Assembly (NCBI RefSeq): GCF_038025025.1
Contig: NW_027117353.1
Coordinates: forward strand, 434,001-498,000
Length of the DNA: 64,000 bases
Reading direction: 5' to 3'
Source of the DNA: Phyllosticta citribraziliensis
Taxonomy: Eukaryota
In this document: positions 34,913 to 63,320 of the stretch, in pieces
Layout: every line of letters starts with the position of its first letter
How positions within the stretch are numbered: the stretch's first letter is position 1
Program-made: the position numbers and the translations under genes
Notes under the pieces: generated by a model
Seen by the model: the letters and a program-made list of their open reading frames with translations, nothing else
What the model was told of the DNA's origin: nothing
The model's database searches: none

Positions 34913-36934
34913 CTAAAAGAGAAAGGCAAGAGAGAAAAGGAAAACAGAAAGGGGGTAGCTATCGAGCGTATCAGTACTAGTTGGTCGGAAATATTAGGAG
35001 GGGTTTCCCACCTGATCCAAGGGCTCGGCGCGTGAAGTTGGCTCGCGCCAGCCGACGACTGGCGGCCAGTAGCATTGGTCCCAGCTGCGCAAAGTTAGCC
35101 AAGCTCCCATTTCAAGATGACGGGACGCTGGATGTGGTACGATACTCACAAAAGTTCGACGACACATTGCTGTCCTGCGGCTGCGGCAACAAGTCCTGCC
35201 TGACCTCGCCGCCGGGCGGCGCATATCCTTCCGTATTCGTCACAGCCGCAGCGACCTTGGTCCAAAAGTCGCAGGTAGGCTTGAACGCCTGCGGATCCTG
35301 AATGAGCTCAAACTTTGCCAGCGTGATGTTGAGGACGTTGGCGAGATTCGAGCCGCTGGTGTCGACCGTGGGCCACGAGGGCGGCGCCTGCAGGCCCGAG
35401 GCGTTCTGGCGGCGCGCGTTGGGGTCGCCGGTGAGCGCCAGCGAGGTGAACAGGCTGCGGTACGCCTCGACGAAGGTGCTGGTGCCGTTGGGGATGAGCT
35501 CCGGGAAGAAGAAGGTGGGCAGCACGTCGGCGCCGTGCTTGTACGGCGGCGCCGCGTACACCATGTTGTAGACCTTGGTGCGGCCAGTCTTGCTGAGCGC
35601 CTCCGCCATGTCGACCACGTTGCAATGGAACCGGTGGTCCGCGATCATGGTCTTCAGCCGAGCGGACTGCGTGTCGAACTGCGCCGGCTTGGTCGTGGCG
35701 TTGAGGGGCGGATACTGCGTGGCGATGGCTTCGGGGACGCCTTCGACGGGGAAGTAGTAGCGCACGTATTGGTCAAAGTCCTCGTTCGTCTGGACGCGCG
35801 GATCGACGTAGTCGGCAGCTTCGTCCAAGCAGTGCGAGATGATGATGGACTCGATGCCCTTCCAGTAGTTGCCGCTCTCGAGCTCCAACGCCGCCATCTG
35901 CCTGACGAACCCGCCGTCGGCTGACGGCTGGTATGCGCTGCGCTCCTTGTACGGGGTGGAGGCGCCGGCGTCGTTGGCTCGCTTCAAGGCTTCGGGGCTG
36001 GCGCGTCGCAGACAGTCGAGTCCTTTACCCTCGCAGCCGGCGTTTTTGGCAAAGTTTTGGAACTGCACCTCCAACGCGCCCCTCCTGTCCCACCTCAGAT
36101 CGAACGCAGGGCTTTGCAGAATGGCTCGCCGGAACAGTGGATCCTGCGTCCCTCCAAAGGCCGTGATTTGATGAAAGACTCCCCCGGCGCCGGCCGATTC
36201 GCCCATGGCCGTGACCTGGTCGCGATCTCCGCCCAAAAGGTTGATGTACTGGTTCGTCCAGTTCAACGCCGCACGCTGGTCCCAGAAACCAGCATTCGGG
36301 AGACCCTCTTTTTCCATGGTACTTCCCGCAAGGAAGCCATAGGCGCCGGTGCGGTAGTTGGACACTACGTACACCACCCCTCCCGTCTCAATGAAGTTTG
36401 CGCCACCGTAGATGTTCTTCTCCCCAAACACGTAGCCGCCGCCATAAAAGTAGTGTATTACTGGAATCATGCTGTTGGGATCTTTGATGGCCGGACCAGG
36501 GACGTAGACGTCGAGGTACAGGCAATCTTCCGACTGGGTGCCTCCCCCTACGTCCTGAATGTTCGTCGGGTTCCCAATGCCCGTCTGTACGCACCTCGGG
36601 CCGTGGGAACCGTCAATCACGGTGGAATTCTGGACCGGAGGCTGTGGCGGTCTCCAGCGCAACTGCTCCGTCGGAGGAGCAGCGAACGGAATGTTTTTGA
36701 AGACATACAGCTGCCCCTGTTCAGAAGCTTCCCAATGATACGAGGAGATTTGTAGCTTACTCTGTTTACTCGATCGTAGCTTTTCGCAACAACACGAGCG
36801 TACGGCAGATTCAAGACGGGCAGGTCCTTGGAGACTGATTGATCGAATTCGACTCCCAACTTCGCCTGCGATTCAACCCCTGGAACACTCGTCAAGGCCA
36901 ATAATATGGCGCAGAGCCTGGCAATCGACAGCAT
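34913..36934 (-). CDS. Secreted type-B carboxylesterase/lipase with a predicted GPI signal; exons 36934-36761, 36710-35150, 35084-35012, 34958-34913
   Basis: Signal peptide, SEDCLYLDV, YGGGY oxyanion motif, NAGFWDQ, nucleophile GESAG, LDEA and KHGAD. Splicing two more 3' introns gives a hydrophobic C-terminus. Confidence 0.88.
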
Positions 36935-58290: not shown

Positions 58291-59025
58291 GGTGGATCCG
58301 TGCCGAGGTGGCTGAGAGACGACGGATGAGAGGACGTATCATGCTGTTTGAACCTAGGGGATGGGGCGACTTGAAGGAGCACAGGTCCGCCGAAGGTGCG
58401 AATCAAGGTGTAGTGTATTGAGTAGGTGAGTGCGGGACTGAGATATCGCCCTGAGCGACGCCCGCAGCACCACGCTAGACTATCTATGCACTAGCGCTTC
58501 GGCTGTCTGACGACTCTACTGCCTACTGGAGACTCCATCCTCCATCACGACTTCCTTGGCCCGGATCGGAGGCAAGAGCTGCAGGATCGACTTGGTTTGA
58601 AATCAAGAGCTGGAAGGAGATTCGACCATTAGGAAAGCACGCTGCCCACCTGGACTACTCCTTCTCGGCCCCACATGCGGCAGGCTGTCCTGGCTGAGGA
58701 TATGGAAGGAAAACTAAGGCACGAGTGGAGTTGGTTTGATTTTTTCACGCACATTATAAGACCCGACACGTGAAGAGATTAATTGCTGAGCAGCAGAAAG
58801 TCGTGGACCATTGAATTCGGGTCTCAAAACAAGAATTTTGGAGTGGAATGACCGCCTGGAAGTGAGAGCAAAGGGGGGAAAAAAATATAAGGGCGGGATT
58901 ATCAAAATTCAAGTTGTATTCTACTTGTAATCAACCTTTACTGCAACCCGTTCGCTCCGGCTCGCCAAAACCAGTATCGATGACAGCGGGGTCCCTGAGT
59001 CCGGCCTGGAGGCAAGCAACAGCGC

Positions 59026-60003
59026 TCAGAAGAATTCGTGGTGGCCAGTTGGCAGAGAGTTGTCCACCCTCTCCCCCCGCTTGGACTCCGCGACGGCAGC
59101 ACGTTGGCTGCTGATGACCCTGCGCAACGTCTCCACGGCGAACCTCACCTCGGGCTCATCGTGTCCCCACTTCTCGGCGCAGGCCGGGCCCAGATTGCAC
59201 TTGTCGGTCGAGAGTATTCCTTTGCGGACGTTGCGGCACGTAGGGAGGACATGGACGAGCACACCGTGTTGCTTCGGCTGGGAGCAGTTTCCCTTGCGCC
59301 ACTGCCTGCAAACGTGGAGCTTGTCGCAGTTGGTGCGGTCGTCTACTCCGACTCGGGGCCGTCCTGGAATCCGCGAGGGCATCTCCTGTCCAAGCCGGCA
59401 GGCTTCGCCGCGGAGCGAGTCAGGGCAGATGGACCTGATAAACTCTTTCTCCTCCGACGCGAGCGGGGCAGTCAGAGGTCCCGAGCGGTCGCCCCATTGT
59501 TGCTCCGCGAGGGCTTCGCTCACAAAGTCAGTCCACTCCGCCCTGGTGAAAACACGAGCCGCATCAGGGTCGTCCTCCTCGTCGGAGTCGGCATTCGGCC
59601 AGGATTCACCGTAGCCGTCAAGGATGCCCTCGATGAACCTTCCTTGCGGGTTGTCGAATGGGTCGGGGAGGCTGAAGTCGTCCCGGGGGATACTTGCTGG
59701 AGGAGGCGAGCCTGGGGGAGCTGGAGCGGCAGGGATGGCCTGAGGAGTAGCGGAGGCAGCGCTGCCCTTGCTGTACGCGTTGGAAGTCGGGGCGTCAAGG
59801 CCTACGGGTTTGCCCTCAGGCTGCTTCAGGACCACATCGGAGGGGATAGTGGTCGGAGGAGGCATGCTTGGGGGAGCTGGTCCAGGCGGGAGTTCGTCCT
59901 CCTCCTCTTCCCCTTCCCAGACGATGCTGTAAGTCGGGGACTCGGGGCCTAGGGGTTTGCCCGTAGGCTCCTTGATGATGCGGTCATTCATCCAAGATTC
60001 CAT
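59026..60003 (-). CDS. Tandem CCCH-type zinc-finger protein (325 aa) with a duplicated Pro-rich N-terminal module
   Basis: Ligand spacings C193-x8-C-x23-C-x3-H230, C232-x7-C-x5-H-x4-H251 and C256-x12-C-x5-C-x5-H281. ATG-initiated ORF with coding-like composition. Confidence 0.7.
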   Translation of the reverse strand: MESWMNDRIIKEPTGKPLGPESPTYSIVWEGEEEEDELPPGPAPPSMPPPTTIPSDVVLKQPEGKPVGLDAPTSNAYSKGSAASATPQAIPAAPAPPGSPPPASIPRDDFSLPDPFDNPQGRFIEGILDGYGESWPNADSDEEDDPDAARVFTRAEWTDFVSEALAEQQWGDRSGPLTAPLASEEKEFIRSICPDSLRGEACRLGQEMPSRIPGRPRVGVDDRTNCDKLHVCRQWRKGNCSQPKQHGVLVHVLPTCRNVRKGILSTDKCNLGPACAEKWGHDEPEVRFAVETLRRVISSQRAAVAESKRGERVDNSLPTGHHEFF

Positions 60004-60018
60004 AACGGGCTGTCAAAT

Positions 60019-60364
60019 CTAAAATTGACGTGAGACAGGAACTTCCAACGCGGACGGTGGACTTTGGTATGACTCACCGGGCAGCGCGAAGGGGATTGTG
60101 TTGTGTAGTATGGGCGGCACTGAAGTCATGTGAGATGAGACCCTCCAACGCGGATGGTGAGCTTTGTGACGACTTACCAAGCAGAGCGTGGTAGGGTATG
60201 TGGAACTGGACTCGTGTGAGAAGAGAGCTTCCAACGCGGACGGTGTGCTTTGTGATGACTTACCGAGCAGGGCGTGGTGGTGGTCGCGTTGTGTAGGGTA
60301 CGTGTAACTGGACTTGTGTGAGATGAGAGCTTCCAACGCGTTGCCAGCTTTGCTGTAGACTCAC
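60019..60364 (-). repeat. Tandem array of four similar intron plus mini-exon units (introns 60364-60308, 60263-60206, 60177-60120, 60077-60019)
   Basis: Each unit on the minus strand reads GTRAGT..CAAAG..CGCGTTGGA..CTCAC..YAG and is 57-59 nt long. Confidence 0.8.
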
Positions 60365-60865
60365 GCGTCCTTTAGCGACAAGAGCGAGGTTGCGTCCGGG
60401 GTGGAGGGACGGTAGAGGTTTGAGCTTTTGGCTTGGGCAATGCGGATGGCAGAGGTGCGGGAAGCGCGAGTTTTGCGTCCAGTGTGGAGGGATGGTGGAG
60501 GTTTGAGGTTCGCGATGGAACCAAGTGGGCGCTGCGCGGAGGTGCGCCCATGGACGGCCTGAGGTTCTTCCCAAGAACAGAACCAGCTCAGTGGTGGTGG
60601 CTTCTTCCAGTCAATCCAGAGTGGTCCCGGTCCTGTTTTTCCACCTCCAACCCAACAACCTCCCTCCTCCTCCCTCCTCCTCCCTCCTCCAGACGCCAAC
60701 CCCTCTCCCGACGCAAGGAACAAACAGGCCAAAATGCGTACCGTCTTTGACACTCCAGACTTCAAGAACAAAACCAGCACCGTCCGCTCCATGGCGGTGA
60801 TGAGCTTGCGCGCGTCGGCCGCCCCGCCGTGGAACCTCGCCACACACCATATCAAAGCCACGGCA

Positions 60866-61491
60866 CCCTCACCTCCCTCGTCGCAGCTTTTCGAGAAGAT
60901 GGCGACGCGCAACTCTCACCTCGAGCGCATGAGGGCCGCCAGAGATGGACGACACCTTCCTTCCCGCGCAATGTCAGCCCCGCCAACTGGACTACCGCGC
61001 CGTGTGGGTTTCGCCATGGAAGCCCGGCACCAAGCTGTCGACCTCAACACCACCGACTCTCCATTTCCCACCCACACCTCTTGTTCCACCTCGGAAGCTC
61101 AAACGCTCAAACGCTCACCTCTGCGGCCTCCGACCCACATCTCCATTCCCACGCCTCTCACCTCTGCTTGTTCCGCCCTGGAAGCTCTTGAGCTCACCTC
61201 GGCAGCCTGACGGCAATCCGGCCAGGCCAGAAACGCCTCCCATCACGACCCCACCATTGTCTGCCGCGAGCCGACACGCCGCCACCACTACCGAGAGGTA
61301 CATGTCGGAGCGCTCCCCTCACCTCCCTCGTCGCAGCTTTACGAAAAGATGGCGAACCGCAGCCCCCACCTCGAGCACATGAGGGCCGGCTTTGCCCGCA
61401 CGTCCGCGCCAGAGATGGACGACACCTTCCTTCCCGCCCACTGGACTACCGCGCCGTGTGGGCTTCACCATGGGTGCGCGGCACCAAGCTG
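60866..61491 (+). repeat. Imperfect direct duplication of about 175 bp (60866-61037 and 61316-61491)
   Basis: Shared CCCTCACCTCCCTCGTCGCAGCTTT...CCAGAGATGGACGACACCTTCCTTCCCGC...CTGGACTACCGCGCCGTGTGGG...CGGCACCAAGCTG. Confidence 0.9.
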
Positions 61492-63320
61492 GCCAACACG
61501 ACGAACCTGCCGATAGACGACTTTTTTGCCCAATGAATGTTACCAATTGCAGGCCCGCGTGCGGAGCCCACCACTCCAGCCTCCTCATTGGATTTATTGT
61601 GGTGGAGTCGAGGAAGGAGGGCCGCCGGGTCGCCTTCCACCCCGAGCGTCTCTGTTTGTGGGCGCCGTTCGCCAACGAGGACGGGAGCGTCAAGTACCGC
61701 TACCGCCCCATGGGCTCACCTTTCTTGATCCTCGACCAGGATGGAGAGGTCTGCCTTGGGCTTCTGGACGGCACCATCATCCTCGGCGGCGATTTTTTCT
61801 ACGAACGCTGCTGCAACCTCAATGCCTCCGACGAGGACCCGAACGCCATATGTTCCTGGGTCATCGACAAGCAGACCGTTTCGGAGTACCCCATCACGCC
61901 CTACAAGGGTGTGACCGTCCCCAAAAGTGTCATCCTTTACGCATCCACTCCCGCCCGTCAGTACCTGACAGAGCAAAATGCCAACCTCAATGGACTGGTA
62001 TTGGCCCTCCGCATCCACGCCGCCCCGGAAATGCTCTACCATTACTTCAGAAGGCTCCGTGAGGAGCAGGGTGTTTTAAAGCTTTCCGACAGCAAGGACG
62101 CCGGCGCCTCGTGCGCGTTGCAGGCTTCGGCCGTTCAAGGGCAGGAGCTCTTCCTGGCGCAACAATTGCGCAGCGCTGAATGGTCCAGCTGGGAGGACGT
62201 GACTGCCAGGGGAGAGGGGAAGATGGCACAGCTCGACGCCGTCATCTCGTACATGCACGCGCCCTTCAAGGATAAGCTCGCCCCGATGCGTATGGCATAC
62301 CATGATGGAAGGCCCGTCTACAGTTTGATGATGGCCCAAGACTTCTACAAGAATGCGAGGATCTCTGACAAGCGCCGCCGCGATGTGTCCCTCAGCCCTG
62401 AGCCCTCCAACAAGGACGACCACACGGGACAGCAAGCCAAGCGGATTTGCACTTCTCCAACCCAGCTCCTGTCCACGGCGAAGGTACGGAAAAGGACCAG
62501 GCTTTCCTTAACCATGCCCAAGAACCCTTATGTGTCGACTTCGGATCCAGCCCATCCTCGAGGCAAACCGCCAGGACCCAACCCGTCCAACGCAGCTGAA
62601 GCGAAGACCACCCCCATGAAGCCACCCGCCCCCGTCAAGCCTAAGCCATTTAACGCGTATGTCCCCAAGCACGTCAAGGCGAAGACTACCATGCCCGGCC
62701 CCGTCAAGCCTGAAGTATCTAACGCGTATATCCCTAAGCACGTCGAGGCGAAGACCACCATGCCCGGCCCCGTCAAGCCTGAAGTATCTAACGCGTATAT
62801 CCCTAAGCACGTCGAGGCGAAGACCACCATGCCCGGCCCCGTCAAGCCTGAAGCATCCAATATGGAGCAGCGTCAGTTTCCCACAACCCACCCTGGTGGC
62901 AACCCCCTAGGGCTTGACCTGTCCACCGTGGAAACCACAAAGACTGCCGTCAACACCCCCACAAAGCCCAATGACGTTGCAAAGCCGACCGCTGCGGAAC
63001 AGCAGGAGGACCGAGCTCCCGAATTGGAGCGGCCCGCGCTATGGAGCTCACGGCGGCGCCTTTTCAAAACGAGCAAAACACCATCGGCGTCTGCGTCGTC
63101 CATGGTGGGAGATGTCGCCCAGCCCTCGTCAGGTCCAAGAAAGACTCGGAGTCTGTTTGATAGCCATGCCTCGTCGTCATTCCTGGCGGGTCTCGCCAAG
63201 AAGGAGGCTGATATGAACGAAAAGGCCAGAACAGATCAGGCGGCGACAGCCATCCCCAAGATAAGACGGACGCTTTTGAAGAAGGCCGGACTGCGCTCGG
63301 TGCTCTCCATCAAAAGCTAA
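61392..63320 (+). CDS. Hypothetical orphan protein (up to 642 aa; start uncertain) with a globular-looking N-half and 23-aa tandem repeats
   Basis: Long ORF with C-ending codon bias; the repeats preserve the frame. No family recognised. Confidence 0.6.
   Translation: MPARPRQRWTTPSFPPTGLPRRVGFTMGARHQAGQHDEPADRRLFCPMNVTNCRPACGAHHSSLLIGFIVVESRKEGRRVAFHPERLCLWAPFANEDGSVKYRYRPMGSPFLILDQDGEVCLGLLDGTIILGGDFFYERCCNLNASDEDPNAICSWVIDKQTVSEYPITPYKGVTVPKSVILYASTPARQYLTEQNANLNGLVLALRIHAAPEMLYHYFRRLREEQGVLKLSDSKDAGASCALQASAVQGQELFLAQQLRSAEWSSWEDVTARGEGKMAQLDAVISYMHAPFKDKLAPMRMAYHDGRPVYSLMMAQDFYKNARISDKRRRDVSLSPEPSNKDDHTGQQAKRICTSPTQLLSTAKVRKRTRLSLTMPKNPYVSTSDPAHPRGKPPGPNPSNAAEAKTTPMKPPAPVKPKPFNAYVPKHVKAKTTMPGPVKPEVSNAYIPKHVEAKTTMPGPVKPEVSNAYIPKHVEAKTTMPGPVKPEASNMEQRQFPTTHPGGNPLGLDLSTVETTKTAVNTPTKPNDVAKPTAAEQQEDRAPELERPALWSSRRRLFKTSKTPSASASSMVGDVAQPSSGPRKTRSLFDSHASSSFLAGLAKKEADMNEKARTDQAATAIPKIRRTLLKKAGLRSVLSIKS
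62600..62862 (+). repeat. 69-bp coding minisatellite (about 3.5 copies; MPGPVKPEVSNAYIPKHVEAKTT)
   Basis: ATGs of successive units at 62691, 62760 and 62829. Confidence 0.95.

Follow-up and report, generated by a model that had tools for sequence, protein, structure and literature searches.

The 5' leader of a gene that encodes a 325-aa protein on the minus strand of the window, i.e. the entire 64 kb stretch of DNA analysed here, contains four related U2-type (GT-AG) introns arrayed in tandem. These segments are real introns that are spliced, and the mini-exons separating them, including the one of only 28 nt, stay in the transcript. Sequence comparisons of the four copies indicate that the array is likely to have arisen through local tandem duplication of a unit of 86-101 bp consisting of a mini-exon and an intron. 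The account as a whole, namely of U2-type leader introns that were duplicated in tandem, are spliced and are most likely near-neutral, appears very probable to us.

On the minus strand, positions 60364-60019 resolve into four GT..AG segments (57, 58, 58 and 59 nt) with mini-exons of 44, 28 and 42 nt between them (Table 1). An earlier, sequence-only reading of this DNA had assigned the same limits and lengths to the introns and mini-exons and the same positions to the start codon and in-frame TGA, all of them exactly. The donors (GTGAGT or GTAAGT) begin at 60364, 60263, 60177 and 60077, a shared core, CGCGTTGGA, begins at 60340, 60238, 60152 and 60052, and the CTCAC motif begins at 60322, 60220, 60134 and 60034. 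The A of this motif lies 11, 11, 11 and 12 nt from the 3' end of introns 1-4, respectively, and the acceptors are CAG in the first three introns and TAG in the fourth. All four copies thus combine GT-AG ends with a GTRAGT-type donor, as is characteristic of U2-type introns. The branch-site consensus of such introns is YTNAY and lies shortly upstream of the acceptor; CTCAC matches it in each of the four copies and is therefore a putative branch point. The acceptor of intron 4 lies 15 nt from the ATG at 60003, and a TGA (60015-60013), 9 nt ahead of the start codon, is in frame with it.

Table 1. Features of the leader array and of the gene that it precedes, listed 5' to 3' on the gene strand
Feature	Positions	Strand	Evidence
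Leader exon 1 (minimum extent)	60365..60652	-	X1 contig piece, 0 differences
Upstream ORF, 59 codons, ATG 60551-60549, TAA 60374-60372	60372..60551	-	sequence only
Intron 1, 57 nt, GTGAGT...CTCAC...CAG	60308..60364	-	joint 60307/60365, X1, one study
Mini-exon 1, 44 nt, untranslated	60264..60307	-	in X1 contig; 60264-60297 in X2 contig
Intron 2, 58 nt, GTAAGT...CTCAC...CAG	60206..60263	-	joint 60205/60264, X1 and X2, two studies
Mini-exon 2, 28 nt, untranslated, lacks ~16 nt present in mini-exons 1 and 3	60178..60205	-	contigs and alignment
Intron 3, 58 nt, GTAAGT...CTCAC...CAG, sole intronic ATG 60129-60127	60120..60177	-	joint 60119/60178, X1 and X2
Mini-exon 3, 42 nt, untranslated	60078..60119	-	contigs and sequence
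Intron 4, 59 nt, GTGAGT...CTCAC...TAG	60019..60077	-	joint 60018/60078, X1 and X2
5'UTR, final 15 nt, including in-frame TGA 60015-60013	60004..60018	-	contigs use TAG 60019 acceptor
Main ORF, 325 aa	59026..60003	-	sequence, protein searches
3'UTR up to X1 contig limit	58578..59025	-	X1 contig piece 58578-60018, adapter letters beyond

The evidence for splicing comes from contigs of four (X1-X4) of seven public sequencing runs, none of the seven being recorded as RNA; the contigs were compared with positions 58400-61400 of the window. X1 and X2 represent two studies that carry the same organism label, and we infer that their contigs derive from cDNA (see below). The X1 contig (1878 nt, 0 differences) maps to 58578-60018, 60078-60119, 60178-60205, 60264-60307 and 60365-60652, and the X2 contig (1240 nt, 0 differences) to 58926-60018, 60078-60119, 60178-60205 and 60264-60297. 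Accordingly, contigs from both studies are joined exactly across 60019-60077, 60120-60177 and 60206-60263, while the joint across 60308-60364 is found in X1 alone, the X2 contig stopping at 60297 in adapter letters. Every skipped part has CT..AC ends on the plus strand, which are GT..AG ends on the strand of the gene. A contig from a metagenome (X3), by contrast, is colinear with the window over 59922-60333 and keeps the introns, which implies that DNA with the introns in place is also found in a source other than the assembly from which the window was taken. It is this combination of exact skipping in the X1 and X2 contigs with retention in the X3 DNA contig that identifies the segments as real, spliced introns. 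Assembled contigs report the prevailing form only, and minor isoforms with retained introns or skipped exons, like the combinatorial leader splicing that the sequence-only reading had suggested as possible, fall outside their scope. The joints at all four places bear out the central proposal of the sequence-only reading, i.e. that the leader holds four complete spliceosomal introns. That reading had held that a lack of spliced reads, or a transcription start downstream of 60019, would speak against it; spliced contigs exist, and one of them extends upstream to at least 60652.

The same contigs delimit the leader and define its coding status. The X1 contig continues for about 25 letters past 60652 into a CCT-rich low-complexity tract (60653-60692), so that transcription would begin no further downstream than 60652. 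The primary leader hence spans at least 649 nt, and the mature leader at least 417 nt after splicing. The mature form keeps the three mini-exons, a 59-codon upstream ORF (uORF) in exon 1 and the in-frame TGA, and the start codon of this uORF is the sole upstream ATG of the mature leader in its known extent. Among the introns an ATG occurs only in intron 3, whose retention would, as read from the sequence, create a 28-codon uORF running across the main start codon in a different frame. In both contigs the acceptor used for intron 4 is the TAG at 60019 and not the CAG at 60010, such that the TGA is retained and the mini-exons belong to the 5'UTR. The earlier placement of the introns in the 5'UTR, which had been argued from this TGA, is consequently upheld, while the alternative CAG acceptor raised alongside it is not used in the contigs.

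Some further repetitive features were noted in and next to this leader. A second direct repeat (60390-60427 and 60473-60510; 38 nt, 87% identity, spacing 83) sits within leader exon 1 on the minus strand and overlaps the uORF. The idea that these exon 1 repeats are decayed units of the array was not supported: their Smith-Waterman score of 20 compares with 19.1 +/- 2.4 for shuffled sequences, 179 of 500 of which scored as high, and nhmmer searches with a profile of the unit gave E-values of 0.21 and 0.65. Upstream, a perfect low-complexity tract, (CCTCCCTCCT)x3.2, occupies 60659-60690 between two divergently oriented genes, and X1 and X2 contigs from both sides end at it.

Comparison of the four introns with each other gave pairwise identities of 63.3-84.5%, the closest pair being introns 2 and 3 (84.5%); their initial description as near-identical was therefore overstated. 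Intron 1 is 94% identical to intron 2 over the last (3') 33 nt and divergent in its 5' half, and the mini-exons are 64-69% identical over ungapped columns. A profile made from the four introns recovered all four in the 64 kb window at E-values of 9.6e-15 to 9.1e-19 and no further copy in it, the next-best match having an E-value of 0.56. Direct-repeat families with spacings of 100 and 86 and lengths of 59-86 nt span exon as well as intron. Tandem Repeats Finder reported four rows in the window, none of them within 60019-60364, which fits the low identity between the copies.

The divergence between the copies is unevenly distributed. Of the columns that constitute splice signals (donor positions 1-6, CTCAC and AG), 12 of 13 are invariant, as against 22 of the 47 other columns (Fisher one-sided p=0.003, a value that is indicative only, as the four copies are not independent), and the sole variable signal column is a G/A difference at donor position +3, where both bases fit the consensus. 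As an indication drawn from the alignment, this is the pattern that purifying selection on splicing would leave. Outside the signals, the 9-nt invariant core CGCGTTGGA is an unbroken run longer than expected if the invariant non-signal columns were placed at random (188 of 20000 shuffles); this test was post hoc and made on four related copies, and its outcome hints at a constraint beyond a purely neutral account. The 9-mer TCCAACGCG occurs six times in the window against an expectation of 1.09, and four of these occurrences are the introns. The other two, an inverted copy in the coding sequence (59776-59784) and one at 36070, were taken as chance. A 12-13 nt inverted copy of the core and the bases following it (59775-59787 on the plus strand; blastn E-value 0.14), which lies in the coding sequence of the same gene, is likewise probably due to chance.

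In length and predicted folding the introns are unremarkable. Six other intron candidates in the window measure 47, 49, 48, 65, 119 and 48 nt (median ~49 nt), this comparison set consisting of heuristic ORF-joining candidates that are unverified by RNA. Folding z-scores for introns 1-4 are -0.10, +0.41, -1.00 and -3.04, with the low value of intron 4 arising from pairing of its GUGAG donor with the CUCAC branch motif. The consensus fold of the four has an energy of -1.49 kcal/mol with no compensatory pairs, and the hairpins typical of introner-like elements (ILEs), which the sequence-only reading had suggested looking for, were not recovered as any stable or conserved fold. A search for known RNA families in 59800-60800 yielded three matches, all far below gathering scores, and the introns are presumably too short to accommodate intronic snoRNAs.

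These observations favor tandem duplication as the origin of the array, because the exon flanks were duplicated together with the introns, the introns are of ordinary length and lack a stable fold, and no other copy is present in the 64 kb. In particular, a repeat unit composed of a mini-exon plus an intron, rather than of an intron alone, points to segmental tandem duplication and not to independent insertions. We propose that several rounds of tandem duplication, perhaps by replication slippage or unequal crossing-over, multiplied a unit of ~86-101 bp comprising a short untranslated exon and a complete intron, and that a single leader intron would thereby have become four. The unit that was multiplied would already have held a working intron, and each copy would have brought along its own donor, branch site and acceptor and could thus be spliced independently. 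Recognition of short fungal introns is defined across the intron. The copies would since have diverged to 63-85% identity with their splice signals intact. The history of duplication does not seem to have been a simple one, judging from the mosaic likeness of intron 1 to intron 2 and the shortened mini-exon 2. Most likely, we tentatively suggest, the array is a near-neutral by-product of repeat expansion in an unconstrained leader, and splicing might have been maintained since unspliced leaders would be worse, being longer and, in the case of intron 3 retention, acquiring an inhibitory uORF.

Alternatively, the array might be a selected regulatory module, the copy number of which evolves under selection, rather than a neutral by-product; we regard this as unlikely. 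It could take one of two forms: either the stability or translation of the mRNA is tuned, through exon-junction complexes and nonsense-mediated decay, by how many junctions separate the uORF stop (60372) from the main AUG, or the core CGCGTTGGA acts in cis and the number of its repeats is what counts. The geometry of the leader is compatible with the former, in that the uORF stop (60374-60372) lies 7 nt ahead of the first exon junction and junctions 2-4 follow 51, 79 and 121 nt downstream of the stop. Through exon-junction-complex deposition, nonsense-mediated decay or splicing-dependent enhancement, the four junctions between this stop and the main AUG may possibly have some effect. In Neurospora crassa, an intron close to or beyond a stop codon recruits decay factors via the exon junction complex and thereby directs the transcript into decay, but uORF-triggered decay in the same organism needs no exon junction complex (PMC7746235, citing Zhang and Sachs 2015). 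The conserved splice signals and the unusual run of the core could also be read in favor of a selected module; however, signal conservation is expected of any retained intron, and the core statistic carries the reservations given above.

A lead to a different number or structure of units is provided by a contig of run X4, from a related organism (organism B), which is ~90-95% alike, runs to 60282, continues with 19 other letters and resumes at 60190 (side 66), having returned 93 nt within the array. Such a return at 60190-60282 could represent an extra or restructured unit in the related organism, though the joint may instead result from assigning sequence to the wrong one of two units with 85% identity. 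In its specific form, wherein each unit adds a junction and a CGCGTTGGA core, expansion and contraction tune expression and species differ in unit number, the idea of a selected module with variable copy number is quite unlikely in our estimate. Within the N-terminal coding region, X4 further skips 151 nt (59763-59913) and has 34 other letters at that place.

Expansion by tandem duplication has precedents among known systems of intron gain, of which the closest is that of the Cryptococcus neoformans gene CNN00420. In this gene a repeat of ~107 nt that includes exon ends and a full intron expands and creates introns, with slippage, unequal crossing-over or gene conversion being proposed as the mechanism (Sharpton et al. 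2008, PMC2395259). The resemblance is in the tandem repeat of about 100 nt (~107 there, 86-101 here) with exon ends and a full intron, the extra copies of which amount to extra introns. The differences are that the repeats of CNN00420 lie in the coding sequence of a basidiomycete yeast, whereas the present array is wholly in the 5'UTR; that the gained introns of CNN00420 match other copies completely or almost completely, whereas those here are 63-85% alike; and that repeat number varies among strains in Cryptococcus, whereas here there is only the X4 lead in a related organism.

A second precedent is the class of 'same gene duplications' (SGD), which comprises 82 introns in 24 fungi, about half of them with duplicated exon flanks, with lengths and folding energies like those of non-duplicated introns, and which was defined by a BlastN 'near-identical' criterion applied to annotated intron sets (Collemare, van der Burgt and de Wit 2013, PMC3609843). 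The array fits this class on similarity within a single gene (63-85% identity, with profile E-values of 1e-14 to 1e-19), on flanking exons duplicated with the intron (mini-exons 64-69% alike), on ordinary length (57-59 nt versus 47-119 nt) and on folding (three of the four z-scores between -1.0 and +0.41). Compared with the SGD introns, those of the array have diverged further and sit in a UTR, and a pipeline based on near-identity might miss them. The array is distinguished by its position wholly in the 5'UTR, by its four copies in a row and by an age sufficient for the copies to have drifted apart with their signals intact. A limited literature search found no account of tandem intron duplicates restricted to the 5'UTR of a fungal gene.

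Other routes of intron gain resemble the array less closely. In the AGGT exonic tandem duplication of the Rogers model, as reviewed in PMC3443670, the new intron is a duplicated exon between two AGGT sites; this shares with the array the gain of an intron through local tandem duplication, but it leaves no exon between copies, whereas here whole introns were copied and real exons (44, 28 and 42 nt) remain between them, and an AGGT origin was accordingly rejected. The sequence-only reading had offered an introner family beside tandem exon-intron duplication, and only the latter of its two origins is favored by the co-duplicated mini-exons. ILEs, known from Dothideomycetes and other fungi, number tens to hundreds of copies scattered over unrelated genes; their length is about double that of regular introns, and their predicted structures are stable and show compensatory changes (van der Burgt et al. 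2012, described in PMC3609843 and PMC3443670). That such elements are documented in fungi (PMC3609843), that they too are multi-copy spliceosomal introns with canonical signals, and that the four copies share sequence, including an invariant internal core, would all agree with a mobile or dispersed family, whether introner-like or a low-copy intron, having inserted four times in this leader. Yet the sequence between the introns is repeated too, which independent insertions would not give. Furthermore, in contrast to ILEs, the introns are 57-59 nt rather than about twice the regular length and have neither a stable or conserved fold nor compensatory pairs. The search of the 64 kb window gave no dispersed copy. 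A strict donor-core-branch pattern had no match in metagenome contigs, and a protein-based search of such contigs for the locus returned 324 pattern matches, none of which was a relative. Repeated insertion is very unlikely.

The joined form in the X1 and X2 contigs might also be DNA, i.e. an intron-less allele or a processed copy, and not a spliced transcript, given that the run type of X1 and X2 is not on record. Against this, the four removals are precise GT..AG removals; the contigs end in adapter letters at gene-sized limits (58578, 58926 and 60297); neighboring contigs differ greatly in depth (746 versus 1199 in X1, 52 versus 15.5 in X2); and intron sequence is absent from all the mapped records of X1 (n=4) and X2 (n=2), as is the intergenic tract 60653-60699 from their contigs. 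These same features are our grounds for considering the contigs to be cDNA, and they make an intron-less DNA source highly improbable.

The protein encoded downstream of the spliced leader has a low-complexity N-terminal half and a Cys/His-rich C-terminal domain at about residues 190-290. No Pfam family matched it at E<=0.1, and a word-indexed protein search retrieved no relative except itself. Among 1.84 billion representative sequences four relatives were found (E-values 1.7e-18 to 4.6e-4), all of which match the C-terminal part only. Twelve Cys/His positions are invariant among the 325-aa protein and these relatives, including a C-x12-C-x5-C-x5-H arrangement. The relatives are longer (466-556 aa), and two of them (P0002 and P0003) share a different N-terminal region that is similar between the two. 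The Cys/His-rich domain, encoded at 59026-59450 on the minus strand and common to the four relatives, thus stands without a curated family. The Atlas feature match to a tandem-CCCH cluster, at 0.82, counts as no more than a lead. The earlier label of 'CCCH gene' is fair as a statement of composition, given the 12 invariant residues, although no curated CCCH profile (Pfam zf-CCCH) matches.

The possibility that the mini-exons are coding, adding an N-terminal extension through the alternative CAG acceptor at 60010, would draw on the 122 open codons of the main frame across exon 1 and the three mini-exons and on the longer N-terminal regions of the four relatives, but is close to negligible, as the TAG acceptor used in both contigs keeps the TGA, the main frame has no ATG anywhere in the known leader, the translated leader is unlike the relatives (best E-values of 2.7 in blastp and 0.15 in tblastn) and another frame likewise has 143 open codons in this leader, such that an open frame says little. 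The leader was also considered as a former coding region and rejected as such, its translation having no similarity to the four relatives.

Elsewhere in the window, ORFs match Dus, carboxylesterase, GMC oxidoreductase, glycosyl-hydrolase families 2 and 18, ADIP and DPBB/Barwin; this gene mix, together with the short introns, was taken for that of a filamentous fungus. The divergent neighbor of the array-bearing gene (61470-63320, plus strand) is a 616-aa ORF without a Pfam family, which contains three tandem copies of a unit of ~23 aa (...KPEVSNAYIPKHVEAKTTMPGPV...) and G-K/N-P-x-G motifs. By eye only, these look similar to the N-terminal half of the 325-aa protein, which is itself internally repeated (KEPTGKPLGPESPTYS / KQPEGKPVGLDAPTSNAYS).

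Few cases allow the origin of an intron to be read directly from sequence, and this leader array is one of them. Here one leader intron would have become four by duplication of a unit of intron plus exon, and all four are still spliced, even across an exon of 28 nt. The mechanism is not new, the same process being documented in Cryptococcus and in surveys of fungal introns. The value of the array lies instead in being a clean example of a known route of intron gain with RNA support, in so far as the contigs are cDNA. It suggests that untranslated leaders, which are free in length and frame, can accumulate introns by unit duplication, and if the number of units varies among isolates, these would constitute a natural series for the effect of extra 5'UTR introns on expression.
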